64,000 nt of DNA from a virus, in IMG/VR virus record IMGVR_UViG_3300027712_000018; one strand, given 5' to 3'. Each line of letters opens with the position of its first letter. Position 1 is the first letter of the stretch. The translations under genes and the position numbers were made by a program. Shown here in pieces: positions 28,438 to 56,376 of the stretch. A model generated the notes under the pieces. That model was not told the DNA's origin, did no database searches, and worked only from the letters and a program-made list of their open reading frames with translations.

Positions 28438-28469
28438 TATAAATACGTATAGGCTTTTAGTTATTTATA
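28438..28469. promoter_or_regulatory. two opposed T4-type late promoters (TATAAATA)
   Basis: TATAAATA on plus at 28438-28445 (towards gp4) and on minus at 28462-28469 (towards gp48), between divergent late operons. Confidence 0.85.
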
Positions 28470-28478
28470 TAGGTATCC

Positions 28479-28937
28479 ATGGCAACTCTTAAAGGTAGAT
28501 TTAAACCAAACAACCCGTCTAAATACAGCGGCGATCCTACTAACATTATTTATAGATCATCGTGGGAACTTAAGGTTATGATGTTTTTAGATTCACATCC
28601 AAATGTTTTGAAATGGAATTCGGAAGAAATTGTTATACCATATGAAAGCCCAGTTGACGGAAGAATTCACCGATACTTTCCCGACTTCTTTGTAGAACAA
28701 ATAAATAAGGATGGTAAGAGAGAAAAGGTTTTGATTGAAGTCAAGCCTAAACATCAGACTATCGCACCTAGTGTCGGCAATAAAATGACACCAAAAGGTA
28801 TGATCAGTAAGAAGTATCTGAATGAAGTTATGACATATGGCATCAATCAAGCCAAGTGGACATCAGCTCGAAAAATATGCAAAGATCGTGGTTGGAAGTT
28901 CCAAATCATGACAGAAGATCATTTAGGGATTAAGTAA
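28479..28937 (+). CDS. head completion nuclease gp4 (TnsA-like)
   Basis: KY.GDPTNIIYRSSWE, WNSEE..IPY, HRYFPDF, EVKP, NQAKW. Confidence 0.95.
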   Translation: MATLKGRFKPNNPSKYSGDPTNIIYRSSWELKVMMFLDSHPNVLKWNSEEIVIPYESPVDGRIHRYFPDFFVEQINKDGKREKVLIEVKPKHQTIAPSVGNKMTPKGMISKKYLNEVMTYGINQAKWTSARKICKDRGWKFQIMTEDHLGIK

Positions 28938-32639: not shown

Positions 32640-33554
32640 TTAATCTTCTGCGAGTGTCTTGAAGAAACTCATATCTGGATCATCATCGTCAATGTCTGGA
32701 GATGGAGTCTCTGCCAGTTTAGGAGCTTGACGCTCTTTGAACTTAGGAGTATAATCCATCTCCTCGTCGTCCTCAGCAGCATTGCCTGTGGGTGCGTGGT
32801 TGCTGCCGTCAAGACCAAGAACCTTGTAGAACTTAGCCTTGAGTTCCTCATAAGACTTGAAGTTTTTAGGATCGACGATCTCTTTGAGGGAGTGTTCCTG
32901 CTTGTAGACCGATTCAAGGGCATCATCATCAGTCAGCAATGGACCCTTGGCCATAAAGTCTGACTTGTCGTAGTTCTGATAACCTTCATACTTGCGGATC
33001 TTAAGCTGGAAGTTTGCTCCTTCCCACAGATCAAATGGGTTAATCTTTTCTTCACCGTATTGTGGTGCCATCAAATCCTTGAGCTTCTCAAAGATCTTCT
33101 TACCATACTTATACAAGAATACCTTGCCTTCGTTCGAAGGATCGGCGGGGTCTTTTACGATGTAGATGTTTGAGTAGTAGTTCTCACGGCGCTTCTGCTT
33201 ACGTACTTGTTTACGTGCAGGCGAATCGTCATCCTTGGTGGAGTTCCAAAGCTCGGAGTTGAACTCAGAAACAGGGTCAGGAAGACCTAGAGTGGTGAGT
33301 GAGTTCTCAATGTAGTAGATGCCGTTTGGTCCTTGAAAGCCGTGATCCCAACGGCGAACCCAAGGCATATCTTCGCCTTCTGGTGGGGGAAGGAAACGAA
33401 TGACTGCATAACCGTTGCCAGCCTTATCGACTGCTGGTTTCCAATACTTTTCGGAGTCGTCGTTGTAACTTGACTTGCCCATCTTGGACAGTTGATCGTT
33501 CAGGTTCGACATAGCCGAAGAACGATTCTTTTTGAGGTCTGCGAAATTAACCAT
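32640..33554 (-). CDS. single-stranded DNA-binding protein gp32
   Basis: DKAGNGYAVIRFLP, HGFQGP, IENSLTTLG, YGKKIF, NPFDLWEGANF.LK; acidic tail. Confidence 0.97.
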   Translation of the reverse strand: MVNFADLKKNRSSAMSNLNDQLSKMGKSSYNDDSEKYWKPAVDKAGNGYAVIRFLPPPEGEDMPWVRRWDHGFQGPNGIYYIENSLTTLGLPDPVSEFNSELWNSTKDDDSPARKQVRKQKRRENYYSNIYIVKDPADPSNEGKVFLYKYGKKIFEKLKDLMAPQYGEEKINPFDLWEGANFQLKIRKYEGYQNYDKSDFMAKGPLLTDDDALESVYKQEHSLKEIVDPKNFKSYEELKAKFYKVLGLDGSNHAPTGNAAEDDEEMDYTPKFKERQAPKLAETPSPDIDDDDPDMSFFKTLAED

Positions 33555-33564
33555 AGTGTTATCC

Positions 33565-34176
33565 TTATGTTGCGGAATATTGCGATGTATTACGGAATGT
33601 GTTTACGATTGTAGTCTTTACTTTGTCTGCGTCAAATGTCAGAAACGGTCTGTACTTAACGCATTGTCTCTTTATATCAGGCCAGATGATTTTGTCAACT
33701 AGTTTTTTGTCCCAATATCGAAAAACATTTGTCACTTCGTTTATCATAATCAAGGTCTCAGGGTGAATCTGTTTTGATTGATACGCTCTGAGGATCTTTG
33801 GATGTTGACCGTCTTTTGATAACAGATTGGTATCGAAGTTTTCATCCAAATTATTTATATCCTGTTGTAAGACATACATCAATGATTGCTGAACTTTCTT
33901 CCAATCACTGTATATCTTTTCAGTCTTTTCATCGCCTAGATCACCAATCCATAGAGAAGGATTACGTACCATGTTGGCTAGGATATAGTCTTTTGCATCT
34001 GATCGCTTTGCAAGCTTGTAGAAGAAGAACTTGTCCTTCCTGTTCTCGAATGCGAGAGATGATACGTTTACCTTACCGTTATACTTGAAGAAGTCATAAT
34101 CGGTGTTGAAGTGCCGTTTTAGGGCAAGGTAGTATACGTACAGTTCGAAGGCGTCTTTTGTTGAGTAGATGCTCAT
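33565..34176 (-). CDS. helicase loader gp59
   Basis: YLALK.HF..DYDFFKYNGK, RKDK.FF.KL, I.PETL; synteny with gp32 and gp33. Confidence 0.9.
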   Translation of the reverse strand: MSIYSTKDAFELYVYYLALKRHFNTDYDFFKYNGKVNVSSLAFENRKDKFFFYKLAKRSDAKDYILANMVRNPSLWIGDLGDEKTEKIYSDWKKVQQSLMYVLQQDINNLDENFDTNLLSKDGQHPKILRAYQSKQIHPETLIMINEVTNVFRYWDKKLVDKIIWPDIKRQCVKYRPFLTFDADKVKTTIVNTFRNTSQYSAT

Positions 34177-34403
34177 ACTGGTAATTTTGATGTCTTTTCT
34201 GCCATAAGGTTTAAAGTCTCGGCTTGTTCTCGAACCTTCGACTTAAGAACGACTGAACGTCTAATGATTTCTCCAATCAATTCAATTTCGACATTATGTA
34301 TTTCAGAATAATGAACCAAGGCATCAATAAGTGTAACATCCTTATTGACATAATTCTCAACTTCTTTTAGAATGACTTCTGCTGTTAATTGCATATTACT
34401 CAT
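34173..34403 (-). CDS. late-promoter transcription co-activator gp33
   Basis: IDALVHY.E...EIE...LKSKV..QA..LNL; synteny. Confidence 0.8.
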   Translation of the reverse strand: MSNMQLTAEVILKEVENYVNKDVTLIDALVHYSEIHNVEIELIGEIIRRSVVLKSKVREQAETLNLMAEKTSKLPV

Positions 34404-34624: not shown

Positions 34625-34646
34625 GGGGAGTGCCGAAACACTCCCC
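34625..34646 (-). terminator. stem-loop after the outer-membrane protein gene
   Basis: 8-bp stem GGGGAGTG/CACTCCCC with a UUCG-containing loop; no strong U-tract. Confidence 0.5.
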
Positions 34647-34653
34647 TTATTGA

Positions 34654-35019
34654 TTAGAACTTAAGTTCAGCGCCGATAATAGCACCATCAAAGTTAAAGT
34701 CAGCATCTGAAGTAGACTTGACGTATGTCACAAGATCCAACTTTCCTGTTGGGTAGTATTCGACGCCTACAGTGGCTCCAGCGAAGACGATATCCTGTAG
34801 ATCAACATCAGTGTTAACATACACTGAGAGACCTTCTGCGGGGACGTAACGCAGTTCGGGAGTGGCTGTGGTAGTCCATAGTTCGACGCTGGTGTCGTAC
34901 TCCACGACGATATCGTTATTAAACTGAACACCAGTTTTACCTAGATCAACTGCGAATGCAGAGCCAGCGGCAAGTACAAGTGCGGTTACGGTCATAAGAA
35001 AAGTTTTCATCATTGTCAT
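34654..35019 (-). CDS. small secreted outer-membrane beta-barrel / porin-like protein
   Basis: Sec signal peptide ending AFA; alternating amphipathic strands; terminal ...GAELKF (C-terminal Phe). Confidence 0.65.
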   Translation of the reverse strand: MTMMKTFLMTVTALVLAAGSAFAVDLGKTGVQFNNDIVVEYDTSVELWTTTATPELRYVPAEGLSVYVNTDVDLQDIVFAGATVGVEYYPTGKLDLVTYVKSTSDADFNFDGAIIGAELKF

Positions 35020-35034
35020 CCTATATTGTTTGTG

Positions 35035-35339
35035 TTGGTGATGGGATTCTGTTTCAAGGTTCCCATCGGACCCATGTAGATTAGGCCGCTAGGGCGTAAG
35101 CTACAGGTGCGAAATTTTCATTTGCATTTGTAATTTTCTTCGCATTAACCCAGCTTAGATCGGGGTAGCTCCATCCTGCCTAGTTCGCCTGTCGATCCTG
35201 TTTTACCCCCAGCAAAGATACACCACATGCGACTTCCATATTGGCTGCAACCCTGTTAACAAGGCCGAGTGTATCCGTGGTGGAGGTAACGGGTACTGCC
35301 CCCGTGTCCAGAACGTGTTCAGTGAATATCATCACTACA
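35035..35339 (-). ncRNA. ssrA: two-piece (circularly permuted) tmRNA; outer boundaries approximate
   Basis: T-arm and UACCUCC-A-CCA ending at 35278 precede the 5' end GGGGGUA at 35210; 7-bp acceptor stem with G3.U70; tag ORF 35125-35081 ANENFAPVAYALAA*. Confidence 0.95.
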
Positions 35340-35343
35340 AGGT

Positions 35344-35374
35344 TATTTATAACATAGGAAATAACATCTGTCAA
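35344..35374 (-). promoter_or_regulatory. composite promoter of tmRNA: TTGACA-N17-TATAAA overlapping late TATAAATA
   Basis: TTGACA at 35374-35369 and TATAAATA at 35351-35344. Confidence 0.8.
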
Positions 35375-35377
35375 GCG

Positions 35378-35563
35378 TTATCCACGATCATATCGTCTAA
35401 TCTTCTCTTCATGTGTCATATGTCGTTTAACATACTCTTCAGGAACCTTACCGATACCTACGACACGATCCCATTCACGTTGGGTGTACGTAGCTTGATC
35501 CCAAGGTAATTGGGTATAAGTAGATTCGACGGTAATAGTGTCATTTTCGTCTTTTTTATCCAT
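35378..35563 (-). CDS. hypothetical protein
   Basis: 61-aa ORF overlapping the end of the hydrolase gene. Confidence 0.55.
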   Translation of the reverse strand: MDKKDENDTITVESTYTQLPWDQATYTQREWDRVVGIGKVPEEYVKRHMTHEEKIRRYDRG

Positions 35564-36161
35564 TCGGTTCGTCCTTATAGAAGATGTGGTTGTCTATACG
35601 TGAAGTACGAGAGTAATCAACATTCCACTTAGGATCTACCTTTGTTGAGTGAAACATGATAGACCCATCAGTCGGATCCTCATATTTATTATAATTCAAC
35701 ATCACAGATTCGGCAATATGTAAAGCTTCGAACCAAGCTTTGGTGTCTTTAGGTTTATCCGACTTACCGTCATTAGTCCAAGAGAACTGATCTTTCTCCC
35801 AAACCACATCACAGATCGTCTTTGGATAGTGAGTCGAATGTGTTCGATTTAGCGTGACCCAAGCCACAGCTGTTTGTCCTAGTTTGGATTCCCCTCTAGA
35901 CTCAAAGTAAATATTGAGAGCTAAACATTTCTTCTGTTTAATATCTACAGCAGGAGGCGGTGGTATTGTTATAGTAGGTGTGACTACTAGTGGGAATTTT
36001 AATGACATATTAGTCATAGCAGTCGTATCGACAATAGTATATTTAATCTCATCTGTAATGGGTTGATCATATGGTGCCTGTTTGGCACTTACACTTATCA
36101 TTACCATACTAGTTATTATGGCAGTGGAAAGTATAGTACCTAATGAGGTTATGATTCTCAT
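35556..36161 (-). CDS. cell wall hydrolase (SleB / Hydrolase_2 family) with N-terminal hydrophobic segment
   Basis: CLALNIYFESRGES..GQ.AVA.VT.NR, TICDVV..QFSW, DPT.G...FH, HIFY. Confidence 0.9.
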   Translation of the reverse strand: MRIITSLGTILSTAIITSMVMISVSAKQAPYDQPITDEIKYTIVDTTAMTNMSLKFPLVVTPTITIPPPPAVDIKQKKCLALNIYFESRGESKLGQTAVAWVTLNRTHSTHYPKTICDVVWEKDQFSWTNDGKSDKPKDTKAWFEALHIAESVMLNYNKYEDPTDGSIMFHSTKVDPKWNVDYSRTSRIDNHIFYKDEPNG

Positions 36162-43264: not shown

Positions 43265-43768
43265 TCAAGCGGCTTTTTGAAACCAAGACGGAATTTCCCG
43301 CTTGGTCCAAACCATCTTGAAACGGTCTTGCTTGGTCTGATAGAACTCACGGTAGGATCGTACAGGATCTTCGGGGTGAATACACTCAGGATTACTACCC
43401 ATGGCCAGAGCGAAGGCGGTACGGTAGTTGGTGGGGATGTTTGTGGGGTAGTTTGACACTACGTTGCGTAGTAGGGAGTCTGACTTGTGAACCTTACCGT
43501 AACGGTGCGTATACTCGTCACACAACGCTACAAAGTGTTGGTAGAGCCACCAGTAGTTGCCGGTGGTCTTACGTGCCCACACGGTACAGGGATGGTTGGC
43601 ATGACAGGTTCGATACAGGATGTCGGGTTGGCGAACCTTGTCACCGTCTAACAGACGATGGACAGCGCAAAGCATCTGAGCCGACTCGACGATCATCTTG
43701 ACGACATGCTTGTCACATTGCATCTTGGCCGCAAGAACGGGGTCTTCTGATAACACAAAAATGTTCAT
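43265..43768 (-). CDS. pyrimidine-dimer DNA glycosylase / DenV-like protein
   Basis: MNIFVL...DKHVVKMIVESAQML, H.NHPC..W, EY..RYGK.H. Confidence 0.85.
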   Translation of the reverse strand: MNIFVLSEDPVLAAKMQCDKHVVKMIVESAQMLCAVHRLLDGDKVRQPDILYRTCHANHPCTVWARKTTGNYWWLYQHFVALCDEYTHRYGKVHKSDSLLRNVVSNYPTNIPTNYRTAFALAMGSNPECIHPEDPVRSYREFYQTKQDRFKMVWTKREIPSWFQKAA

Positions 43769-43816
43769 GATGTATCCTTTGTCTACACTATCAATATAAA
43801 CATTTTTGAAAGAATG

Positions 43817-44491
43817 TCAAGCCTTATCTGCAAATAATTCCCATTTTCCTTCGATTGTTTCGACCAAAACCGTACAGTGTTCGACCCAATCGCCTGTGTT
43901 CATGTAGTAGTCGGTCATCTTGGGAATGTGAGTGTGACCGCATATGACGGCATCGTAACCGTTTAACTTACCATATTTTGATAACATTTTTTCAGTTCCC
44001 GTCACTCGAAGGTATCGGTAAGGGGTTTGGTTTAGTGCCTCGGCACGTTCGATCCACTTGATAGGAATGAGGTCGCCTATTCGTGCCAGAGAGTTGATTA
44101 GCTTCTTGGGGAACCTCATCCACATATCGAACTGATCCCCATGCGTGACGAGGATCCTACGACCGTCTACAGCATGATAAACGTGCTTGTTAGCTATGGT
44201 GCAGTTACCGAAGCTGAAGTTGTATTTGAAGAAAGGTCTTACGAAATCGTCATGATTTCCTGGAGCGTAGTAGACTTTAGATGACATACTCATCTCTAAG
44301 ATTTTTCGAATCACTTGCGTCTGTTTGTCGGTCCAGTATTGTTTGCGTTGCAGAGCCCATCCGTCAATGATATCCCCAACCAAAAACAGATTGTCACAAG
44401 TGTTAGAGTCAAGGAAACTCAGAAGCTTCTTACTCTTTGCATGTCTTGTGCCTAGATGTAGATCTGAAATGAAGATGCTTTTGTAATGCAT
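43817..44491 (-). CDS. metallophosphoesterase, UDP-2,3-diacylglucosamine hydrolase (LpxH)-like
   Basis: SDLHLG, LVGDIIDGW, GNHD, HGD, CGHTH, NTGDWVE. Confidence 0.85.
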   Translation of the reverse strand: MHYKSIFISDLHLGTRHAKSKKLLSFLDSNTCDNLFLVGDIIDGWALQRKQYWTDKQTQVIRKILEMSMSSKVYYAPGNHDDFVRPFFKYNFSFGNCTIANKHVYHAVDGRRILVTHGDQFDMWMRFPKKLINSLARIGDLIPIKWIERAEALNQTPYRYLRVTGTEKMLSKYGKLNGYDAVICGHTHIPKMTDYYMNTGDWVEHCTVLVETIEGKWELFADKA

Positions 44492-45160
44492 TTAGAACCC
44501 ATGAATTTCAGTATATTTCTTTCGCAAAGCAATAAAGTCGTGGATGTGGTCGTCTCGCTTCTCGACAAACTCTTGTGGTATACCGTCATCCGTCATCACC
44601 AAAGTCACTAGTTGACTGATAGGTTTACCTACCCGCTCCTCGAAGGCCACAGCGTAGAATGACTCTTGCATGAAGTAACTCTTGATCCACTCAGGCTTCT
44701 TGGCACGGCGAGAGGTCTTGAAGTCAATGATGGACAACTTACCCCGCCACTCCGCAACCAAGTCTACACGACCCGCCACTTGCATGAAGTGAGAATATAA
44801 AGGCGCTTCTTGATACCAGATGTTGTTTAGGTGTTTGTCGAGCAGAGGCTTGATCTGGTTGAACATCTCAACGTTGATCGGCATCTTCTTTCGAATGTAG
44901 TCGGGCTTGTTGTCGATATATTCCTCGGCAATCAAGTGTACCTCAGTGCCACGGTCTGTGGCCTGCGTGCTTATGCGCTGGGCTTCAGCTTCCCCTACCC
45001 GTGCCTTCCACACGTCTAGGCCAGTCTTATCCTGAATGGCCAAGACGGTGGTGACAGATGGATACTTGCCACCACCAGTTGGGTAATAGAATCGTCCTGT
45101 TGGTGTAGTCTCACAGTATAAATCGGGAAGTTGAATCCCGTGGCTCACATGGTTAAACAT
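44492..45160 (-). CDS. PD-(D/E)xK exonuclease
   Basis: YPSVTTVL, RGT.VH, AGRVD, IIDFKTS, YF.Q...YA. Confidence 0.88.
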   Translation of the reverse strand: MFNHVSHGIQLPDLYCETTPTGRFYYPTGGGKYPSVTTVLAIQDKTGLDVWKARVGEAEAQRISTQATDRGTEVHLIAEEYIDNKPDYIRKKMPINVEMFNQIKPLLDKHLNNIWYQEAPLYSHFMQVAGRVDLVAEWRGKLSIIDFKTSRRAKKPEWIKSYFMQESFYAVAFEERVGKPISQLVTLVMTDDGIPQEFVEKRDDHIHDFIALRKKYTEIHGF

Positions 45161-45921
45161 TACAATCCTAATTTGTCTCTAGCTATGATGTATGACTTCA
45201 CAAGGTCAGATCTTACTATATCATCAACAAAGAATTCTGTAAACTCAAATTCTTCCATTCCACGAATGATTCGAATGAAATCGGCGATACCCGATTGTTC
45301 GTTGAACCTTTTGTTGGTCAAGTCGTCTTGTTTGATGTCACCCGCAAAGATGATCTTGCAGTTCTGGCCAACACGTGTCATGACGGTATGGAGCTCACCA
45401 TCATTCATGTTCTGCATTTCATCAACAACAATGATACAGTTATCAAAAGTAACGCCACGAAGGAACGAGGTGGATCTGAACTCTATCATATTCTTTTGTT
45501 TTAGAATCGAATACGCATCGCCTCGACCAAACAACTTTTCACAGATAGGTGGATAAGGCTCTTCGTATACTGCCTCTTTCTGTCCACGAGTTCCTGGCAT
45601 GAATCCTTGGTCACGTGTCGATACCGTAGATCTGATGAGCCAAACTTTCTCATGATCGTTTCTTTTATCAAAAACGTCTTTGAGAGCGAAGTACAGAGCC
45701 ATGAAGGTCTTACCTGTACCAGCGATACCATGTAACATCACGTTATTGCCTGCGGCCCAAGACTCGAAAGCCTTGCGTTGGTTTTCTGTCATAGGCTGAA
45801 TATCGGCGGTGATGCCAAATCCTGCTGACAGTTTGTTACCATCTTCAAGTACACCGTCTTGTTTTAATACTCTCTTCTGTCTTTTTGAAATTCTGGACGA
45901 TCTTTGTTGTTGAAAAGCCAT
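45160..45921 (-). CDS. phoH: PhoH-like ATPase
   Basis: G.AGTGKT, SFLRGVTF, VDE.QN, TRVG, GD..Q.D, DIVRS.LV. Confidence 0.95.
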   Translation of the reverse strand: MAFQQQRSSRISKRQKRVLKQDGVLEDGNKLSAGFGITADIQPMTENQRKAFESWAAGNNVMLHGIAGTGKTFMALYFALKDVFDKRNDHEKVWLIRSTVSTRDQGFMPGTRGQKEAVYEEPYPPICEKLFGRGDAYSILKQKNMIEFRSTSFLRGVTFDNCIIVVDEMQNMNDGELHTVMTRVGQNCKIIFAGDIKQDDLTNKRFNEQSGIADFIRIIRGMEEFEFTEFFVDDIVRSDLVKSYIIARDKLGL

Positions 45922-45931
45922 ATTGTGCTCC

Positions 45932-46168
45932 TTAGTTGCGAGTCTCGATTGTACCGTGTGGGTGGGCGCTCTTGGCCTTCTTTAGGACATCATTGAATCC
46001 GTTATCTATTCGGCGGACTCCTAGACGTACTGAGTCGCCAAAGGCAACAACTGGTGGGACTTGCATGTATTTGGGATTTTGTTCTAGAAACGATTCTCTT
46101 TCTGCTAGTGATAAGACCTGAGTAGTTTCTTCTAATGTTTCTTTGTTTCGAAACGTATATGTTGGCAC
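45932..46168 (-). CDS. FmdB-like small regulatory protein
   Basis: GTG start after AAGGAG gives MPTYTFRNKET...; GFNDVLKK. Confidence 0.65.
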   Translation of the reverse strand: MPTYTFRNKETLEETTQVLSLAERESFLEQNPKYMQVPPVVAFGDSVRLGVRRIDNGFNDVLKKAKSAHPHGTIETRN

Positions 46169-46182
46169 ATCATGCTCCTTAT

Positions 46183-46213
46183 AAAAAAAGGGCAGCTGAT
46201 GAAGCTGCCCTTT
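46183..46213 (-). terminator. rho-independent terminator
   Basis: AGGGCAGC-loop-GCTGCCCT-TTTTTT on minus. Confidence 0.8.
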
Positions 46214-46233
46214 CACTTCTACCATCAAGGTAT

Positions 46234-46815
46234 TTATACAATCGTCTCGTAAATCTCTTTCCAACTTTTGACCTTGATGATGCCGTCATGATCGTAATCT
46301 TTGTTGTGTCCATGTTCGATCAAGACAGCGCACAAACCAAGTTTCAGACCAACCTCAGCGTTTTCGGGTTTATCTTCAACCCAAAAACAACCGCTACCAG
46401 CGTAGGGAAGAAGAGCTTCGTCCTTGTCAGCACCCGTATCCAAACAGATGATCTTTTCAAAGACAGTCTCACCAAACACGGCGTGAAGGTTTTTCTCCCG
46501 TAATTTTCCAGCGTAGGGGTCAAGACTCAAAGAAGTGATACAGTGGAAGACGAACCCGTGCTCCTCATGCAACATCCGAACGTATTTGATGGCGTCCCGA
46601 AACGGGGTTAACCAACCAATCGCAGCAGAATCGTTGAACTCGGCGATCAGTTCCCGAGCCCGAGCCTTCGTGATCCCCCAAGCTTTCCCTTGGTCATAGA
46701 CCGTGGGGTCAACCAGAGTGTGACCGTGACTAATCATCCATTCCCGAAAGGAGTATTCCCAATCAAGAAGAACACCGTCACAGTCAACAAGGATCACTTT
46801 TTCATGCAAATTCAT
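46234..46815 (-). CDS. HAD-family 5'(3')-deoxyribonucleotidase-like phosphatase
   Basis: LVDCDGVL, ITS, K and WVEDK motifs. Confidence 0.85.
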   Translation of the reverse strand: MNLHEKVILVDCDGVLLDWEYSFREWMISHGHTLVDPTVYDQGKAWGITKARARELIAEFNDSAAIGWLTPFRDAIKYVRMLHEEHGFVFHCITSLSLDPYAGKLREKNLHAVFGETVFEKIICLDTGADKDEALLPYAGSGCFWVEDKPENAEVGLKLGLCAVLIEHGHNKDYDHDGIIKVKSWKEIYETIV

Positions 46816-47202
46816 TTAGGCAGCTTTCAAGGTAAGTTCAACTTCTTCGAACAAGGGTTTCGTGTTGCTGGCGACGAACCAACCTTCGCCGTCCCACAAG
46901 TAGAGGTAGGGGACATGGGACACTTGGCCCTCTTCAGTCAGCTCAATCAAGTATTCCTCAACCGAGCCGAAGGTCATCGGTTTGTCTTTGTGAACCGCTT
47001 CCGCCAAGCTCTTAGTGTAGTCGATGTAGAGAGCGGAGAGGTAACCACCGTAGGCGACCGTATCGGCAGCGGTGGTGGTGTTGTAGCTTTCGGTCAAGGT
47101 CTGACCGTTGCCACCGACGATATAACCGTCATAGTGGCAGTAAGAGGCGACGACTTCGCCAGTGGTTTCGTTCCAAACGCCGATCAAAGATGCAGTACCC
47201 AT
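46816..47202 (-). CDS. conserved phage protein (YCHYDGY family)
   Basis: MGT.SLIG, YCHYDGY, YLYLW..EGW. Confidence 0.7.
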   Translation of the reverse strand: MGTASLIGVWNETTGEVVASYCHYDGYIVGGNGQTLTESYNTTTAADTVAYGGYLSALYIDYTKSLAEAVHKDKPMTFGSVEEYLIELTEEGQVSHVPYLYLWDGEGWFVASNTKPLFEEVELTLKAA

Positions 47203-47260
47203 GAGGATCTCCTTTTCCCTACACTACTAATATAGTCACTACGCCTAGGAATGTCAAGCC

Positions 47261-47455
47261 CTAATCGAAGAAATTTCCTTCGACCCAGCGAAATTGTGTC
47301 TCTTTATCGAGCACGTGAATGCTCATCCAAGCACCGGGTGGACCTTCCTCAGGCCAGACCAGCAACTTGTTTGCCTCGACCATCGCCTCGCCGACTGTAT
47401 CGGTCTCAGTGGTCAGAGTTTTACCGTAGGCGGTAAATTCATATATGGGCATCAC
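47261..47455 (-). CDS. hypothetical protein
   Basis: AAGGAG RBS. Confidence 0.55.
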   Translation of the reverse strand: MMPIYEFTAYGKTLTTETDTVGEAMVEANKLLVWPEEGPPGAWMSIHVLDKETQFRWVEGNFFD

Positions 47456-47462
47456 GTTCTCC

Positions 47463-47819
47463 TTAAGAACCAGTTACTAACGCCAAGGATCCATCCGACG
47501 ACTGTGTGAACCCTTCAATGTAAATGTGCCAGTCGCCTTCGACCGCCACCGCTTCTTTGATCACTTGTTCAGCTGCACGATAGAGTTCTGCAACCGAACC
47601 GTTTTTCGCAACCGCCCGATAGGTCACTTCAGGTGCCGTCTGCGACAAGAGTTGTTCGATAGTCGAACCTTTCGCATAGACAGTGTATTTGACAACCCAT
47701 TCGTAGTCATCAAGTACTTTGTCTTCCATGTGAAGGTCATCACCGATAGACCAACGGGAGACGTAACCTAGCTCGGACTGTTTCTCAATCCAATACGTAA
47801 TGTTCTGCATATCCATCAC
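47463..47819 (-). CDS. hypothetical protein
   Basis: 118 aa; C-terminal DWHIYIEGF. Confidence 0.6.
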   Translation of the reverse strand: MMDMQNITYWIEKQSELGYVSRWSIGDDLHMEDKVLDDYEWVVKYTVYAKGSTIEQLLSQTAPEVTYRAVAKNGSVAELYRAAEQVIKEAVAVEGDWHIYIEGFTQSSDGSLALVTGS

Positions 47820-47968
47820 ACTAACTCCTTCAACAGTTTTTCGAACTCGGCTTTCATACCGTAGGCGGCTTTGAGCGACCGCTCACGCTCAACGACATCT
47901 TCAATCAACATATAAGCGGCGATGTTCTTTTCACACGCAGCGATGTAACTCAGAAGTGCTTCTTTCAT
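47816..47968 (-). CDS. hypothetical protein (50 aa; not in the ORF track)
   Basis: Manual translation MKEALLSYIAACEKNIAAY...; first gene after a promoter cassette. Confidence 0.55.
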   Translation of the reverse strand: MKEALLSYIAACEKNIAAYMLIEDVVERERSLKAAYGMKAEFEKLLKELV

Positions 47969-48028
47969 GACGAACCCTTTCGTTCCCTACACTACTAATA
48001 TAGTCATTTTGAAAAGAATGTCAAGCCC

Positions 48029-48253
48029 CTATTTGAAGTAAACGTGAAGATATTTGTAGAGGCCAGCGTCACCCGCCAGAATTTCAGTGCCGTCGATCAG
48101 GAAGGTTTTGTTTCCTTCGACAACGGTCACCTGAATGTCTTTGCCATATTTGGTACGGGTTTCGGTGATGGTCCCAAGGAAGGGAACCCCATCATAGAAA
48201 CCTGTCACTTCGCAACCGACAGCGTTATAGAGAGCGTTCATAAACTCGTTCAT
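48029..48253 (-). CDS. hypothetical protein
   Basis: MNEFMNALY...; coupled to the upstream small ORF 48255-48386. Confidence 0.55.
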   Translation of the reverse strand: MNEFMNALYNAVGCEVTGFYDGVPFLGTITETRTKYGKDIQVTVVEGNKTFLIDGTEILAGDAGLYKYLHVYFK

Positions 48254-48453
48254 CTCAGGCCTCACAAACCATAAAGGACACCAGACGGGTCATGATGTAA
48301 TCATCTTCCGTCATCTCATCCACAGCGGCGAACAACGAAACTACAGCTTCGTTCATCCAGCCCATCATCATCTCAGCAGTAACCATCTCGACATCTCCTC
48401 TGTCTACACTATCAATATATACATTTTCAAAAGAATGTCAAGCCAGCAAATGC

Positions 48454-48479
48454 AAAAAAGTGAGCCGAAGCCCACTTTT
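48454..48479 (-). terminator. rho-independent terminator (UUCG loop)
   Basis: AGTGGGC-TTCG-GCTCACT-TTTTT on minus. Confidence 0.75.
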
Positions 48480-48664
48480 CTTAGAATAAAGGAGTGAACA
48501 TAGTAGCCATGACGTTCGAAGTACTATCGGACTGATCGTCAAAGAAGTCATCTCGCTTCTTGATCTTGTTTCGACGTTCTTCTCGAATCTGCGAGCGCTT
48601 GCGGTCAGAAGTGTCATCGTCACGATCACCCCAATCGTTGTCATACCATTGCTCTTCGTATGAC

Positions 48665-49108
48665 TTATTCTTCTTCGCCATTCTTTTCCTCGTTAGTGAT
48701 GATATTGCCAAAGGCTTCGTTGATCAACTTAATCGTAAGACCCTTGTATCCTTTTTGTGCAATCATGTCAACCAAAAGTTTGGCATCTTCACGGTGGACT
48801 GTCTCAAGAATTTGAATGAAAATCTGCTCCCGTTTTGTTTTGGTAAGATTTTCTCCGCCGAATCCATCGGCCAGATACTTGAGTTTGCGAGCTTCTTTGT
48901 AGAGAGCTCCATGGTTCTCTACCGCAGTTGAGGCGTTGAAGATTGGCGGGGTGCTGGGAACCAAGAACTTGACTTTCTTCTTGTCATACATAGCTACTAG
49001 AACCTCTCGTAGCGCTGTAGAGTCGTTATTCTTTAGGTATGTCACCTTTTCGTCACGTGTCTTCAACTCACACGTCTTGTTAATAATCTCTGAAATCATT
49101 TGTACCAT
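48665..49108 (-). CDS. conserved T4-like hypothetical protein next to RNase H
   Basis: L..EARKL.Y..GG, KREQIFIQ.LE..H..DA.LL. Confidence 0.75.
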   Translation of the reverse strand: MVQMISEIINKTCELKTRDEKVTYLKNNDSTALREVLVAMYDKKKVKFLVPSTPPIFNASTAVENHGALYKEARKLKYLADGFGGENLTKTKREQIFIQILETVHREDAKLLVDMIAQKGYKGLTIKLINEAFGNIITNEEKNGEEE

Positions 49109-49109
49109 G

Positions 49110-49958
49110 TTAAAATTCCGATAGGCTTTCCATTAGGTTTCTAAGTTTGTTGTTCATGAAATAGTTGACCAACTGTGATTTGTCTTTAGTATTCTTCTCT
49201 TCGAACTTCTCAATCACTTGAGCCTTGATAGACTCAGGTACATAGTTTAGATCAATGAGCATTTGATTACGCTTGAAGTTACGTAAGATCTGTTCATTGG
49301 TGATAGTGCCACTCAGTTCAGTTAAACGTTTCTGAGTGATAGGCTTTTGACGTTCGCCGATAACCAAGCAGTTGTCGGGTGATAGAACGTTTGGCACGCC
49401 GTCTCCAGCGTCACCCTTGATAATATGTTCAAGGAGATACTGCTCAGGGTCAGAGTGTTTGATCCAACGTTTGCGAATCGGATCAAACTGGTCAATGTTG
49501 GCATATTTATGCAACTGGATATAGTCCTTGTCCGACGACAGAATCAGGATCTTTTCACCAGAGTTCAGGATAGTTCCTTTGAGGTGGCCGATAGTACCAA
49601 TGATATCGTCTGCTTCGGCAGTCTCAATCTGAATCACTTTGTAGGGAAAGAATGTCTTGATTTCTTCTCGAACCCTATTCAAGGATACGAAGATAGCATT
49701 CCAATCAAGTTCAGACTCTTCACGATTCTTCTTACGTGAAGCTTTGTAGTACGGGAATGTTGTACGGCGCCAATAGTTCTTGTCATCAGCGCAGATGATC
49801 ATCTCACCGTAGTCATTCCCAAACTTTACTTTGTAGGCTCGAAGTGCGTTAAGGATCATATGACGAATCATGTTCTCGTCAATTACGGCGTTTTGGTGAT
49901 TTCCTAAGTTTGCCATCAGGTTGGAAATCATAACCTGATTTAGGTCTACAAGTATCAT
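49110..49958 (-). CDS. rnh: T4-type RNase H (5'-3' exonuclease)
   Basis: MILVDLNQ, RHMILN, WRR..FPYYKA.RK, EADD.I, SSDKD..QL, GD.GDGVPN. Confidence 0.95.
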   Translation of the reverse strand: MILVDLNQVMISNLMANLGNHQNAVIDENMIRHMILNALRAYKVKFGNDYGEMIICADDKNYWRRTTFPYYKASRKKNREESELDWNAIFVSLNRVREEIKTFFPYKVIQIETAEADDIIGTIGHLKGTILNSGEKILILSSDKDYIQLHKYANIDQFDPIRKRWIKHSDPEQYLLEHIIKGDAGDGVPNVLSPDNCLVIGERQKPITQKRLTELSGTITNEQILRNFKRNQMLIDLNYVPESIKAQVIEKFEEKNTKDKSQLVNYFMNNKLRNLMESLSEF

Positions 49959-50011
49959 GTTAACTCCAAATTAATCGTATACTAGTAATTATATACCATT
50001 TTGGCCCCATG

Positions 50012-50350
50012 TCAATACATTTCGTCACTTTCCATGATTTCTCTGAACTTTATTAAGTGGTCTTCGTAGTCAATGTCGATCAAAGTATCAGCCAGTTGTT
50101 GAGCGTCACACTTGATACCCGCTACCCGTGTAATCAACGCTTTCAAAACGTCAATCAAAAGGAAGATCTCTCCCATAGATTTAGGATCTTTCTCAAGAGG
50201 AATCTCCATGTCATCTAAGACCCATCCAATATCGGATGCAATAGCGATGGCAAACTGAAGTGCTTTCTCTTCAGAATCAATCGTCATATCGTCGTCTTCA
50301 GCTTCTTTTTCACGCTTTTCTTTCGCCGCAGCAAAGTCGATTACAGTCAT
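50012..50350 (-). CDS. hypothetical protein
   Basis: N-terminal VIDF motif; acidic. Confidence 0.6.
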   Translation of the reverse strand: MTVIDFAAAKEKREKEAEDDDMTIDSEEKALQFAIAIASDIGWVLDDMEIPLEKDPKSMGEIFLLIDVLKALITRVAGIKCDAQQLADTLIDIDYEDHLIKFREIMESDEMY

Positions 50351-51501
50351 TTGTATGCCTTTAGGATAATGGTTTCGGTATTAATGCGACCCGTGAAGGC
50401 CGAAGGTTTTGTTTTGATATCGTTGTAGAACTTCGAAGCTTTGGCCTTGGTCAAGGACATCAGAGCCTTAAGTGTCTCGTCTGGCTTTCGAATCATCTTC
50501 TTCGAAGTGTTCTCAATGTCGATACCCTGCAGTGTAGTACCCTTCAAGGCGAAGCCTGATGCACTTTGACTGATCGCCCGTGACAGCGTTCGATACTTCA
50601 CGTTGAAGAGATACAGTTCACTTGCACCAACGATCAAGGTAGGATCAATGCTGGTGATTTGGTATTCGTCACTCTGCTTCAGATATTGGATCTTCGAAGT
50701 CTGCTGCGTTGCCGACTTGGGTTTGGTCACTCGTGTCTTACGAACCGCCTTCTTGGAATTCATATACTTCTGAGCGTCATCAACGATGGCGACGATCAAC
50801 TTGAGATACTCACGCTTCTTAGCCAGTGTTAGATTGGCATAGGCTTCGACCAGATCAGGCGTCTTCTTCTGTAGAAGTTCCTCGAGCTCTTCCTTGATAC
50901 GGGTGTAATAGTCAAACACCCCCTTGGCAGTGTTCGAAGGGGCGTCAATCTTCTTGAGTTCGTTGTAGACTGAGTAACTATCAGAGTCAACCCAAACACC
51001 CCTGTAGAAGTCATCTAGGACGCCCTCCACGTTGGCTATGAAGTCTGAGGTACGTTGCTTGATGATATCGGCAGGATTCTGCCGTGTTGGTTCGAAGGCT
51101 ACGACCTTGTTCTTGCTTGCCTTACCATATGCAATCGCTTCGTTGACTTTGTTTTTGATCCAATCAATTCGTTTGGCATCAAAAGGTGCGCCGTTCATAT
51201 GCATCTTACACAGACTTGCCGCAGTCATACTTGTACGCCAAGTCTCAGCGGCCTGATAGTTGATCAAGTCTTCCTTGGTCATATTCTTCTTGATCCAAGC
51301 TTCGACCCACTTTACGCCGTCTTTCAGGTCATAGAAATAGTTGTAGTGTCGCAGTGTGTCATACACTGCCGACTCTACATCTCGAACCCCAACCCAATTG
51401 ATTGTCTCTAGGCCAACGTGTCGTTCCTCGGCCGTAATAGACTTACGGCCGAGGTTAATGGTAGGCTTTTTCTTTACTGCGATAGTCTTAGATAATACCA
51501 T
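50347..51501 (-). CDS. conserved T4-like hypothetical protein
   Basis: SIDP..IVGA.EL..FN.KYR, KGTTL, RKP, GRIN..TIILK. Confidence 0.75.
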   Translation of the reverse strand: MVLSKTIAVKKKPTINLGRKSITAEERHVGLETINWVGVRDVESAVYDTLRHYNYFYDLKDGVKWVEAWIKKNMTKEDLINYQAAETWRTSMTAASLCKMHMNGAPFDAKRIDWIKNKVNEAIAYGKASKNKVVAFEPTRQNPADIIKQRTSDFIANVEGVLDDFYRGVWVDSDSYSVYNELKKIDAPSNTAKGVFDYYTRIKEELEELLQKKTPDLVEAYANLTLAKKREYLKLIVAIVDDAQKYMNSKKAVRKTRVTKPKSATQQTSKIQYLKQSDEYQITSIDPTLIVGASELYLFNVKYRTLSRAISQSASGFALKGTTLQGIDIENTSKKMIRKPDETLKALMSLTKAKASKFYNDIKTKPSAFTGRINTETIILKAYK

Positions 51502-51532
51502 GAATTTCTCCTTAGAAGACCACCCTACACTA

Positions 51533-52486
51533 TCAAATCAAGGATGTCAAGAGTTGATCCCACTCTTTTGCTCTTTTGTACCAATTAAATTTGTTATCAA
51601 AAAAGTATTTCTGATGGTCTAGGTACTTCTGATGTTCACCAGTGTTGGCCATGACGTTCTGAATCGCTCGTTCAAGGTAGGCAGCGAATCGGTTGGCATG
51701 GACCTCGACGTTCTCATCCCACTGATACATGTTAGCCCAACCTTGTGCAGTGTCAACCATACCACCGTAGTTAGGACATACGACGATGTTCTTGGCAGAC
51801 ATAGCTTCGATAGATGCCAAGGAGTTACACTCTTGCCAGATTGATGGATAGGCATAGATGTGGCTCTCTCGAAGTGCCTCACGAATCACTTCGTTAGGTT
51901 TCGACCCATGGTAGGTGATTTGAGGATGGTTCTTGCACTTGTCAAACAACTTCTGGTATGACGCATCACGATCACCCCAACCATAGATGTTGAAACTTGA
52001 GAACACGTCTAGATGAATGTTGGAGTATCGCTTGGCCAAGTGTTCGAACACTGGTACAAGGATCTCTAGACCTCTGTGAGGGGTGGTGTGGTAGATGATC
52101 TTGACTACCCCGTCATAGGTCTTGGTGACCTCTGGAATCGGTTCTATCGCATTGTACATGACCGTATAGTCAGAGAACGGAATACCCATGTATCCCTGAA
52201 ACTGTTGAGCCTGCCAGTTACCCACAAAGACGATCTTATCAAAACGTTTTCTTTGTGCAACATCGGCGAGGTGTTGTAGTTCAGGATCTCCGGGAAGATC
52301 ATGCACGATAAGCACTTTTTTCTTATCAAAACGAAGATCCCTCACCCTAGAATGAATGATCTGAAACTTTGAAAGTACGGCGGGGTCACAGTCCCGTAGC
52401 ATCCTTTCTGCCATAAGCTCAGTGCCACCTCGAGCCTTTTGAGTGATATCCTCAGTTACGATTTTGCCGTCTACAATCTGAACCAT
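51533..52486 (-). CDS. glycosyltransferase (GT-B, family 4-like)
   Basis: GGTE, HDL, TPHRGL, YPS.WQE.....IEAMSA. Confidence 0.88.
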   Translation of the reverse strand: MVQIVDGKIVTEDITQKARGGTELMAERMLRDCDPAVLSKFQIIHSRVRDLRFDKKKVLIVHDLPGDPELQHLADVAQRKRFDKIVFVGNWQAQQFQGYMGIPFSDYTVMYNAIEPIPEVTKTYDGVVKIIYHTTPHRGLEILVPVFEHLAKRYSNIHLDVFSSFNIYGWGDRDASYQKLFDKCKNHPQITYHGSKPNEVIREALRESHIYAYPSIWQECNSLASIEAMSAKNIVVCPNYGGMVDTAQGWANMYQWDENVEVHANRFAAYLERAIQNVMANTGEHQKYLDHQKYFFDNKFNWYKRAKEWDQLLTSLI

Positions 52487-52752
52487 TAGTGGATCACTCT
52501 AATACCGTTTACGGTAAGTACAGAATCCCAACGGAACGAACGCCATCCTTGATTGACCAAATCGTATACTGCCAAGACTTCGTCATTCGGCTTCTTCTTT
52601 TGGACAGACTCCTCAAGATCCACCTGAGCAGGGAGTTTGTCTGCTCGAAGAGTACAAGTCATGATGCGGTTTGTACCATCTTTCTTGATGAATTCAACAT
52701 CAACAGACTCAGTATGCAGAAGGCTCAGAATATCAGATTTTTCCATTACCAT
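52486..52752 (-). CDS. SH3/Sm-like WYL_2 (DUF2693) protein
   Basis: F.KKDGT.R.M.CT; V.D....WRSFR. Confidence 0.8.
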   Translation of the reverse strand: MVMEKSDILSLLHTESVDVEFIKKDGTNRIMTCTLRADKLPAQVDLEESVQKKKPNDEVLAVYDLVNQGWRSFRWDSVLTVNGIRVIH

Positions 52753-52987
52753 AATCTCCTAGTGTGTTTTCAATTTCAGCAGCGAAGTCGGTGTAACCAC
52801 CGATATAACGATCATCCCACCAGATTTGTGGTAGGGTTTTAGTGTCGGGTTTGATAGCCATCAGTTCAAAGATGTATTCAACATTCTCTTCCGTATTGAG
52901 ATACTTATACGGCAAGTTGCGACTCTCCACCAGTTCTTTAGCCAAAGCACACCACTTGCAATTGTTCTTTGCATAGATGGTGATCAT
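52733..52987 (-). CDS. glutaredoxin
   Basis: CKWC, TLPQI, IGGY. Confidence 0.92.
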   Translation of the reverse strand: MITIYAKNNCKWCALAKELVESRNLPYKYLNTEENVEYIFELMAIKPDTKTLPQIWWDDRYIGGYTDFAAEIENTLGDYGNGKI

Positions 52988-53247
52988 GCTTCGACCTCTT
53001 TCTGACCCTTGTTCATATTCTTCATACGAATAAGATATTCTTTACCATTGACCTTAGTCTTGGTGTTAGGATGCACCTTGCCATCTTTGCCAACGTTAGG
53101 CAACGACAGAACGATGTTACGGCCCTTACGCAGAGCCGCCAATTGGTTCAGCAACTTCTGACCTTGGTCATTGACCTTGGTGCTGATGGAACTGATACGT
53201 TCCCCCTTCGAAGTAGCGTGCTTGCCTGAACCTTTACCCTTAGCCAT
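52984..53247 (-). CDS. basic hypothetical protein
   Basis: MAKGKGSGKH..SKGER; Lys-rich. Confidence 0.55.
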   Translation of the reverse strand: MAKGKGSGKHATSKGERISSISTKVNDQGQKLLNQLAALRKGRNIVLSLPNVGKDGKVHPNTKTKVNGKEYLIRMKNMNKGQKEVEA

Positions 53248-53880
53248 CTTTACTTTCCTTCTCCAATGGCCATTCCCACGGTTTTCGTGATGGCCCACTC
53301 ATTTCAATTTGTCGTTTCATCTGACCCATATAGTCAACGATGTTTTCTGCAAGAACTGATGCTGTTAGTCCTACATATTTGTCCATACTACATTCAGTCA
53401 GTAACTTTGTCAACTCTTTTTTGACATTTTTGTATTCAGCCATATGACCGCTCCGGTCCCGTTGTTCGTTCTGTTCGATCGTAAACCTGTGACCAATCAC
53501 ACCCATAAGCAGGGCAGATATGTAGACGCTCAGGCAGACCATTATCATCTTTGACACCACCTTCACCACAGATGAAGTAGTGGCCACTCTTATCAGGATA
53601 TGATGTTTTGAGATACATCTCAACTTTCTCAAGAAGTTTGAGTTTCTTCTCCAACTTTTCGATGCAGTCGGCGGCGCAATCTGTCAGGTCAGTTTCTTCG
53701 GCAAGCAGCCGTTCGATCAGATCGTCACTCATTTGCGCCCCGCAGACGCAGCCATGCCGAGAGCCATCCAACCCACTATAGCACTAGCAGGCTCGTTAAG
53801 ATACCAAGCAATAAAGTTTAACATTACAAAAGCGATAGTGAGACCCACCAAACTTTCGATAAGATGTTTTAGATATTTCA

Positions 53881-54324
53881 TTAGAAGTCCTCCGTTCCCT
53901 GATATACATCGGCGACAAATACGCCATTCTCCCGCCACATCTTCACAACACGGGGGCGGTCATCAAACACAATATCAGGCTTCTTACCAAATCGAGCAAC
54001 GATCTGATCCAGCAGTTCTTTCTTGATGATGTCGTCTGACCGATAGTCATTGTCTTTACGCATGTAAAGTTTTTCAAACTTGATGTCGTGTTCGTACAGC
54101 CAATCTTCGGTCAACTTACGAGTGTCATCACCACGGCCAGAACACAGGATCACAGTGTGACCAGCAAACGCCATTGTACGGGCAATGTTTGCGATCTGAT
54201 CAATCGGCTTGTCGTTGACCATCTCCGATTTGAACATGGCCCAGTTCTTTGGCTTCTCCCGCCAGTAATGGACACGGTGACTGATATCAGCCAGCGTTCC
54301 ATCAATATCAAAACAGATCAGCAT
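53881..54324 (-). CDS. HAD phosphatase (3'-phosphatase domain of polynucleotide kinase-like)
   Basis: FDIDGTL, SGR, LYMR..D.R.D..IK, FDDR..VV.MWR. Confidence 0.88.
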   Translation of the reverse strand: MLICFDIDGTLADISHRVHYWREKPKNWAMFKSEMVNDKPIDQIANIARTMAFAGHTVILCSGRGDDTRKLTEDWLYEHDIKFEKLYMRKDNDYRSDDIIKKELLDQIVARFGKKPDIVFDDRPRVVKMWRENGVFVADVYQGTEDF

Positions 54325-55249
54325 TCTTCTTCCTCTAGTGTGTTATTAGCGAACTTGAGCAGAGCATCGGCCAGTTCCAAGGCTTCTTGCTTGCTGACAG
54401 TGATGTATCCTTCTTCATATGAATGAAGGCCCATGAACTCACGAATGGTTACTTGAAGACAGACGCCACGATCATCCCCACCCCAGAAGCGGGTCAATAG
54501 GTGTCGTGAGGTTCCTTTCATGTCAGTACTCATTTCCATACCCTCGCTGTAATGTTGTATCCCTTGTACCGTGACTCCAACACAATATCGTATCCTTGAA
54601 GTTCTGTCAAGTGCTTTTTCAGGTGTCGCTCAAACGCTTTGAAGCTACGGCAAGGAGCGTGAGTAGAACCACCGTCTGGCAAGTCAAGAGTAGAAGTCAC
54701 CCAACGACGAGTTTTGTAGCACCACCACAATGGTGGTTGATCGTCTTTTAGAGCAAACGCAGTGATACCCATGAACCGACTATTCAGGATACGTTGACCA
54801 AGGGGAGCATCCCAACCAAACATCATTTTCATATCACACCACCGCCCTATCGACAATCTTATAAGAACGTTCTTCCTCATACATCTCCATGTAAGCGTCC
54901 ATCACCTCTTCGGCAAGCTCGTAGGAAGTATAGACCCCCACGACATGGATATCTTCAGTCTTGAAGAAGTTCAAGGACTTCTCAAGCAGGACATACACAG
55001 TTTCCATCTTACACCTCCACAGCGATTATAGTTTCTTCTGCCTGCTCATAGTAGTCGGGAGCCATAGTGGCAGTGTTTTGGTCGTTGTACCACTTGATAC
55101 GAGCTTTAGCGGATTGCAGTGTATCAAAGTCTTCGGTCCAATACTCACGACCCCAACCACGTTCAGAAGATAGGCAGTTGATGCGGAACTTGACTGTCAT
55201 AGCGATCTCCTTTGTCTACACTTACAATATAAACGTTCTGCCGAGGATG

Positions 55250-55723
55250 TCAAGCCACAAAATGAAAAAAGTCAAACAAAAGGACCACACGATCCTCTGA
55301 CCCACGGTTCCATGCAGAATGGATCGAAGTGTCGTCAAATACGAAAGCCTTACCTTGAGTCCACGAAATATCGTGACCATCTATCTTTATACCACAATTT
55401 TCATTTGTAATCAAACCAAGATGTCCTCGAAGCACCTCACTAGTATACCCAACATGGGGGTGTATCTCACATTGGGGTTTCATGATCGAAAACCCGTAGG
55501 TGTGAATTCCTGATATACTATCACATAACTTTGACGTGATGGGCGCAAGTTTCTTGTTTTCTAGGTCTTGGCCTTGAAACTTCAACCCGATAACATACCA
55601 AAGATCGTTGTGTATAGACTCGAACCACTTAACTTGTAGTTTTGCCAAGGTGTGATACTCTGAAAGAATGTCTTGCCAAGAGTCCTCAAGATCTTTTAGA
55701 AACGGAAACTCAGAAGTAGACAT
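55250..55723 (-). CDS. aspartyl/asparaginyl beta-hydroxylase (AspH/LpxO-like) 2OG-Fe(II) oxygenase
   Basis: FS.M.P...I.PH.G, LR.HLGL, FDD...H.AWN...DRVVL; start placed at MSTSEF. Confidence 0.85.
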   Translation of the reverse strand: MSTSEFPFLKDLEDSWQDILSEYHTLAKLQVKWFESIHNDLWYVIGLKFQGQDLENKKLAPITSKLCDSISGIHTYGFSIMKPQCEIHPHVGYTSEVLRGHLGLITNENCGIKIDGHDISWTQGKAFVFDDTSIHSAWNRGSEDRVVLLFDFFHFVA

Positions 55724-56357: not shown

Positions 56358-56376
56358 ACAATTTCCTTTCAAAACG

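Follow-up and report, generated by a model that had tools for sequence, protein, structure and literature searches.

Transfer-messenger RNA (tmRNA) releases ribosomes that have stalled and marks their incomplete products for destruction. A preliminary description of the locus studied here had proposed that a phage encodes such an RNA in two pieces, at a place where the open reading frame (ORF) track reports proteins. The locus raises the question of whether it carries a genuine tmRNA gene and, if so, what that gene would do for the virus. Throughout, the window is the whole 64,000-nucleotide stretch of viral DNA that was analysed, and all coordinates refer to it.

Identification of a Permuted tmRNA Gene

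The only RNA gene that ARAGORN called in the 64-kb window is a permuted tmRNA at 34990–35371 on the minus strand with the tag ANENFAPVAYALAA. Searches with Rfam models returned full-length matches to both RF04321 (tmRNA_permuted; 102 bits against a threshold of 47, E = 1e-18) and RF01849 (alpha_tmRNA; 96.7 bits against a threshold of 50, E = 4e-25), and the alpha model is the top-scoring member of clan CL00001 for this gene. No Rfam family other than these two was detected in the window, and a permissive local scan of it likewise gave nothing further. The preliminary description had named ARAGORN and the alpha_tmRNA model as the means of checking its proposal; both match, the latter above its curated threshold, and with the RF04321 score they confirm that the phage encodes a circularly permuted tmRNA of the alpha type and that this RNA has a tag of its own. 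Two 64-aa ORFs overlap the RNA gene, at 35180–35374 (minus strand) and 35315–35509 (plus strand), as had been said of the ORF track, and both are spurious products of ORF calling. The novelty that was implied for the gene is not supported, as two-piece phage tmRNAs have been published (PMC9004378, PMC12656738, PMC11915505) and are abundant in IMG/VR.

Judged from its sequence and that of its relatives, the gene is very probably the intact, functional ssrA of a lytic T4-like myophage, encoding an ordinary two-piece tmRNA that recycles stalled ribosomes by means of host factors.

Architecture of the Two-piece RNA

Read along the minus strand, the gene is comprised of an acceptor piece of ~61 nt (35278–35338), an intervening segment of 67 nt (35211–35277), and a coding piece of ~171 nt (35040–35210). 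The acceptor piece is delineated by Rfam alignments and covariation, with its 5′ end (~35338) placed from promoter spacing only. It includes the 5′ strands of helix P2 (GUAG, 35338–35335, and CGU/CUG, 35315–35309) and the 3′ acceptor strand UACCUCC (35288–35282), together with the T arm (35305–35289, with the loop GGCAGUA). The piece terminates in ...GGACACGGGGGCAGUACCCGUUACCUCCACCA, where an encoded ACCA, consisting of the discriminator A and the CCA end, is read directly at 35281–35278.

The intervening segment, also read directly, is closed by a stem of GAUACAC (35275–35269) and GUGUAUC (35223–35217), which is recovered by an MFE fold. By analogy with known two-piece tmRNAs, this spacer would be excised on maturation.

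The coding piece, for which ARAGORN, Rfam, and covariation agree, opens with GGGGGUAAAACAGGAUCGAC at 35210 (G1), the first seven bases forming the 5′ acceptor strand GGGGGUA (35210–35204). It holds the conserved GGAUCGAC, the 3′ strands of P2, the PK1 region (35164–35149), the tag reading frame, and a pseudoknot at the 3′ end. The tag frame (35125–35081), called by ARAGORN and read directly, runs GCA AAU GAA ... GCC UAA and encodes ANENFAPVAYALAA*. The 3′-terminal pseudoknot (35040–35073) is of the H type, with GGGU/ACCU interleaved with GAUGGGA/UCCCAUC around the conserved loop GAAACAGAA, an arrangement supported by covariation. The order of the pieces with the acceptor piece first, the CCA ending at 35278, the 67-nt segment with its GATACAC/GTGTATC stem, the 5′ end of the coding piece, the tag frame, and the acceptor stem GGGGGUA/UACCUCC with its G3·U70 pair all lie where the preliminary description had placed them.

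Covariation of the Structure and Selection on the Tag

The structure of the window gene was projected onto an alignment (A2) of 71 unique genes, comprising the window gene and 70 related viral tmRNA genes from IMG/VR. Standard pairs occupy 90.5% of cells in A2 compared with 72.9% after shuffling, with none of 500 shuffles reaching the observed value, and sliding the partner by 1–3 columns as a control left only 38–49% paired. Changes on both sides were found in 37 of the 46 pairs. The acceptor stem is 100% paired (71/71) with G3·U70 invariant (71/71), and the T arm is also 100% paired with both-sided changes in all five of its pairs. The P2 helices that link the two pieces (GUAG/CUAC and CGU-CUG/CAG-GCG) are 87–94% paired and show compensatory changes, while the helices of the 3′ pseudoknot are 81–92% paired, with 10 of 11 pairs changed on both sides. 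The closing stem of the spacer is 99.6% paired, the invariance of its sequence (GATACA/TGTATC) being partly an artefact of the search patterns used, and the interior of the spacer is hypervariable in both length and sequence.

Within PK1, stem 1 (CCC/GGG) covaries and is 85% paired among the A2 sequences that have it, and stem 2 is without variation among close relatives. The PK1 region (A2 columns 345–375; 35164–35140 in the window) is missing in approximately half of the related phage tmRNAs, which have a gap of ~30 nt in its place and keep all other parts; PK1 seems, from the alignment, to be dispensable in part of the viral family. Two further candidate elements were discarded. A proposed UGA/UCA local hairpin in the acceptor piece is paired in 46.5% of cases in A2 and is unsupported, and AGCU/AGCU was ruled out as an alternative PK1 stem, GCUAC covarying instead with the start of the acceptor piece.

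Conservation of the tag is periodic by codon. Across 60 unique related tags, the four codons at each end are conserved, and their third positions carry 1.1–1.9 bits of entropy, compared with 0–0.9 bits at positions 1 and 2 of the same codons. Because the third positions vary while the first and second are fixed or nearly so, the tag is evidently read as protein. The identical tags of loci L003–L007 stem from a tag-based search and were excluded from this argument. The alignment as a whole supports the conclusion that the tmRNA hallmarks of the window gene are maintained by selection across the 71 related phage genes.

Putative Promoter

Upstream of the acceptor piece, on the same strand, lies a TTGACA hexamer (35369–35374), read directly and the majority sequence at this position in A2, followed by a 17-nt spacer and TATAAA. 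The −10-like box, TATAAATA (35344–35351), is at the same time an exact match to the T4 late-promoter consensus. Its columns in A2 show conservation of 90% or more, with A32, T33, A34, A36, T37, and A38 nearly invariant. A simple promoter scanner skipped the TTGACA-N17-TATAAA arrangement because it accepts a −10 hexamer only if the sixth base is T. On the strength of the consensus match, TATAAATA and TTGACA would act as the tmRNA promoter, and a start ~6–7 nt past TATAAATA would fall at ~35338, where pairing in the acceptor piece begins. The combination of a σ70-like promoter with a T4 late motif would make both early and late expression possible. The same consensus is also used in PMC9004378.

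Genomic Context

The window is that of a T4-like myophage, encoding gp32, gp59, gp33, and the baseplate genes gp25, gp53, and gp48/54-like, as well as PhoH, a DNA methyltransferase, and others. Along the minus strand, a cell-wall hydrolase (35556–36161) and a 61-aa ORF precede the tmRNA gene, which is followed by a 121-aa ORF, a 67-aa ORF, the late-transcription coactivator gp33 (34173–34403; Pfam Trans_coact, 2.3e-9), gp59 (33565–34176), and gp32 (32640–33554), the last two assigned by PHROG. For gp32, the Sinorhizobium phiM12 group, at 54% identity, and the cyanomyoviruses, at ~50%, are the nearest cultured relatives. No close relative at the DNA level was found in the phage collection, where only short gp32 fragments matched, and blastn of the tmRNA against phage isolates returned core matches of 35–40 nt and nothing longer.

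The arrangement of these genes is conserved. Among 149 loci with a tmRNA of the window type, 82 have at least 3 kb of downstream sequence; gp33, gp59, and gp32 are found downstream on the same strand in 56–58 of these 82 (~70%) and in the other orientation in none. A permuted tmRNA was not found in the phiM12 genome; set beside the shared synteny, this marks the gene as long-standing but dispensable in the T4-like lineage.

The 121-aa ORF (34654–35019, minus strand), which has a signal-peptide-like N terminus, lies ~20 nt past the 3′ pseudoknot of the tmRNA and is without a Pfam or PHROG match. In 15 related viral loci the tmRNA is likewise followed by a homologue (29–97% identity), and the ORF may be co-transcribed with the RNA. 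After it, at 34625–34646, is a perfect 8-bp GC-rich hairpin, GGGGAGTG/CACTCCCC. A role as terminator was ruled out, the T run being missing in the minus direction, and the hairpin could be a stem that protects or processes the RNA end.

Elsewhere in the window, a 152-aa ORF (28479–28937, plus strand) contains a TnsA-like endonuclease N-terminal domain (Pfam, 6e-24) and sits in a divergent late-promoter region beside the baseplate genes, with TATAAATA motifs nearby at 28438 (plus) and at 28462 and 28547 (both minus). The early region (43265–56372, minus strand) carries auxiliary genes, including a denV-like pyrimidine-dimer glycosylase (43265–43768), a metallophosphoesterase (43817–44491), a PD-(D/E)XK nuclease (44492–45160), PhoH (45160–45921), DUF6433 (48665–49108), a PNKP-type HAD phosphatase (53881–54324), and an Asp/Asn β-hydroxylase (55250–55846), all on the minus strand.

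Related Viral tmRNA Genes

The back-translated tag pattern matches five IMG/VR contigs, one of which, L005, shares 99% identity with the window across the tmRNA region. Relatives were sought more widely with a pattern of 27 specified bases spanning the 3′ strand of the spacer stem and the start of the coding piece, and this pattern is present in at least 120 viral contigs in IMG/VR, here referred to as the GATACA/TGTATC spacer-stem subfamily. ARAGORN, applied to the fetched loci, called 92 permuted tmRNAs and no standard ones; 72 of the 92 are unique, and they carry 52 distinct tags, nearly all of the form AN(D/E)N...(A/R)LAA. The closest relatives found independently of the tag, among the matches listed, are L079 (76% identity, with the tag ANDNFAPVAYALAA), L020, L149, L131, and L035. 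A 17-mer pattern, TCCACCACNGATACAYT, gave 96 matches, some of them probably due to chance, and ARAGORN and the longer pattern were relied on instead.

In a sample selected for neither the spacer stem nor the tag, permuted tmRNAs were found in 57 of 115 IMG/VR loci, with very varied tags. Only two of these 57 have the GATACA trailer, so that the window type is one subfamily among many. The window gene joins a large group already described from aquatic and alphaproteobacterial phages, and its existence is no surprise.

Two observations concern the loci themselves. ARAGORN misses clear members of the group, an example being L004:5662–6045 (minus strand), which scores 107 bits with RF04321 and has no ARAGORN call; a tmRNA was recognised by the core pattern or by ARAGORN in 149 loci, compared with the 92 that have an ARAGORN call. 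The parent contigs of L003, L006, L108, and L107, at 113–216 kb, have CheckV completeness estimates of 31–54%, and either some of the tmRNA carriers are jumbo phages (>300 kb) or the estimates are off.

Comparison with Known Two-piece tmRNAs

A two-piece ssrA was described by Buchholz et al. in 2022 from the OM43 phage Melnitz (PMC9004378). In the same work, 402 phage genomes with a tmRNA yielded 133 unique structures, 53 of which were two-piece by ARAGORN and 50 of those 53 from aquatic phages, and a permuted tmRNA was present in 17 of 47 Melnitz-like contigs (PMC9004378). The tmRNA database contains 79 bacteriophage sequences (PMC11915505).

Melnitz and the related pelagimyophages and Kyanoviridae-like T4-type phages are similar to the window in that a permuted alpha-type tmRNA resides in a T4-like myophage. 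The ssrA of Melnitz is directly upstream of the gp33 coactivator (PMC9004378), with gp59 and gp32 following in the same order as in the window, and shares the promoter motif of TTGACA and TATAAATA; its tag is likewise of the AN(D/E)N...YALAA form, although the sequence, ANDNYVPVDYALAA, differs from that of the window, and no smpB is reported for Melnitz either. The two genes differ in that blastn aligns the tRNA-like core only (88.6% over 35 nt) and in that the spacer stem of Melnitz is AAACAC/GTGTTT as compared with GATACAC/GTGTATC. In addition, a glutamine riboswitch (RF01739, 52.8 bits) directly follows the Melnitz tmRNA (L002:3857–3905, plus strand), whereas RF01739 was found neither in the window, even at E ≤ 1, nor in the other tag-identical contigs. 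Such a riboswitch 3′ of ssrA is common and not defining (PMC9004378).

The order of acceptor piece, spacer, and coding piece is that of the Caulobacter ssrA and of the RF01849 alpha_tmRNA model. Shared with RF01849 and the Alphaproteobacteria are the GGCAGUA-type T loop, G3·U70, the encoded CCA, GGAUCGAC, the 3′ pseudoknot with an ACAGAA loop, and a tag with an ANDN-like start and an AA end. Relative to RF01849, the window gene is phage-borne, carries a T4 late-promoter motif, and is without ~36 model positions of the outer P2 helices, which appear as gaps in the alignment. Its tag also sets it apart from the bacterial two-piece tmRNAs, as described below.

Alpha-type tmRNAs also occur in cultured alphaproteobacterial phages, namely the Ruegeria/Roseobacter DSS3P8-like phages, Phaeobacter MD18, Rhodobacter RcXuper, Mesorhizobium Cp1R7A-A1, and Sinorhizobium Phosso, and B. 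elkanii phages carry one as well (PMC12656738). The cores of these phage genes match members of the viral family at 75–98%, covering 8–47% of the query, but the phages are mostly siphophages or jumbo phages, not members of the T4-like lineage of the window. In the records of these cultured phages, the tmRNA matches are mostly unannotated.

Against this background, the additions made here are modest: the GATACA/TGTATC subfamily in at least 120 IMG/VR contigs, its gp33-gp59-gp32 synteny, and a tag unseen in 185,579 species genomes.

SmpB, Tag, and Host

No SmpB domain was detected in 30 ORFs of 76–253 aa in the window (64 kb of phage), in agreement with the earlier remark that no smpB is visible there. 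The search was also negative in five related viral contigs, including a 283-kb record rated 100% complete, and as a control was positive in 10 of 14 known genomes. It is plausible that the phage tmRNA would use the SmpB of the host.

Among 185,579 bacterial and archaeal species, each represented by a single genome, neither the exact back-translated tag nor the looser pattern ANxNFAPVAxALAA has a match, and the tag is therefore no unaltered copy from a sampled cell. Cultured phages of Rhodobacterales, Rhizobiales, and Sphingomonadales have tmRNA cores that match members of the viral family. Given these core matches and the top rank of the alpha model in the Rfam clan, the host of the window phage is likely to be alphaproteobacterial. 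As Melnitz demonstrates, phages of other classes can also carry an alpha-type ssrA (PMC9004378).

Proposed Function

The processing, charging, and tagging steps set out here, as well as the benefit to the phage, are what we infer for the gene. A single precursor would be transcribed from the promoter combining the σ70-like TTGACA-N17-TATAAA with the T4 late motif TATAAATA. Modelled on Caulobacter, host tRNA-processing enzymes would then remove the 67-nt spacer, with RNase P cleaving at G1 (35210) and the 3′ end being trimmed to the encoded CCA (35278). The ~61-nt acceptor piece and the ~171-nt coding piece would stay joined through the acceptor stem and helix P2, which covariation shows to be paired, and the RNA would be charged by host AlaRS through the family-invariant G3·U70. 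Host SmpB and EF-Tu would deliver the charged RNA to ribosomes stalled on broken mRNAs, where translation would resume at GCA and append ANENFAPVAYALAA, a step supported by the codon-periodic conservation of the tag, and the LAA-COOH end would route the tagged protein to ClpXP-type proteases of the host. The phage would probably benefit by keeping up ribosome recycling while it degrades host mRNA.

A different purpose would be served if the RNA were a spare part against host defence, replacing or supplementing the host tmRNA when defence nucleases cut tRNA, mRNA, or tmRNA. The absence of the tag and of its looser pattern from the 185,579 species genomes, which argues against a simple host copy, the conservation of the gene in a large phage clade, and the possible early-plus-late promoter are all consistent with such a role. 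These facts, however, also fit plain ribosome recycling during phage-induced mRNA decay, linkage to defence or anti-defence genes was not seen, and phiM12, a close relative, manages without a permuted tmRNA; we consider a counter-defence role unlikely. Quite unlikely, in our estimation, is a broader proposal in which the GATACA-stem subfamily would constitute a phage-private trans-translation system, whose tags are absent from cells and whose early and late promoters are fused, acting at a set stage of infection. If true, the system would be more than a simple booster of host ribosome rescue; it might, for instance, help the phage to withstand RNA cleavage triggered by host defence, or send tagged proteins to a fate other than that of host-tagged ones.

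Alternatively, the RNA might perform no general rescue and instead tag selected (host) proteins for amino-acid recycling, or act as a decoy that competes for SmpB. The 52 distinct tags among 92 genes attest to a mid-tag that is highly diverse in the phage family. Even so, there is to our knowledge no means by which a tmRNA chooses its substrates, and selective tagging would be without a known route. Selective tagging was raised as an option by Buchholz et al. (PMC9004378), and a tmRNA-like RNA of phage DS6A that has no CDS inhibits the host tmRNA in E. coli (cited in PMC11915505). The window RNA, in contrast, keeps the full tRNA-like domain, the resume codon, a selected tag, and the canonical ALAA end, which is all that is needed for ordinary trans-translation, and remodelling of the proteome or a decoy function appears very unlikely. 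The last alternative, an unused host ssrA copy or attachment-site remnant, is suggested by the frequent use of tmRNA genes as integration sites and by known prophage fragments (PMC9004378, PMC4383910) but is extremely improbable, and effectively ruled out by covariation and synteny, as the gene is complete, sits in a lytic T4-like genome, has a tag found in no cellular genome among the 185,579 species, and is conserved in position and structure, with compensatory changes and selection on the reading frame, in at least 120 viral contigs.

Ordinary trans-translation through host factors is, accordingly, the reading that we retain. At the level of annotation, an RNA gene takes the place of two spurious 64-aa ORFs and becomes a well-supported addition to the viral tmRNA genes, a very large set that is for the most part unannotated. 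The tmRNA points to a present or past alphaproteobacterial host of this T4-like phage, which is uncultured. That the position and the promoter are conserved and the tag is under selection argues for a lasting need for ribosome rescue in these phages, and the biological reason for which phages carry two-piece tmRNAs could usefully be sought in a tractable host-phage pair of this group.
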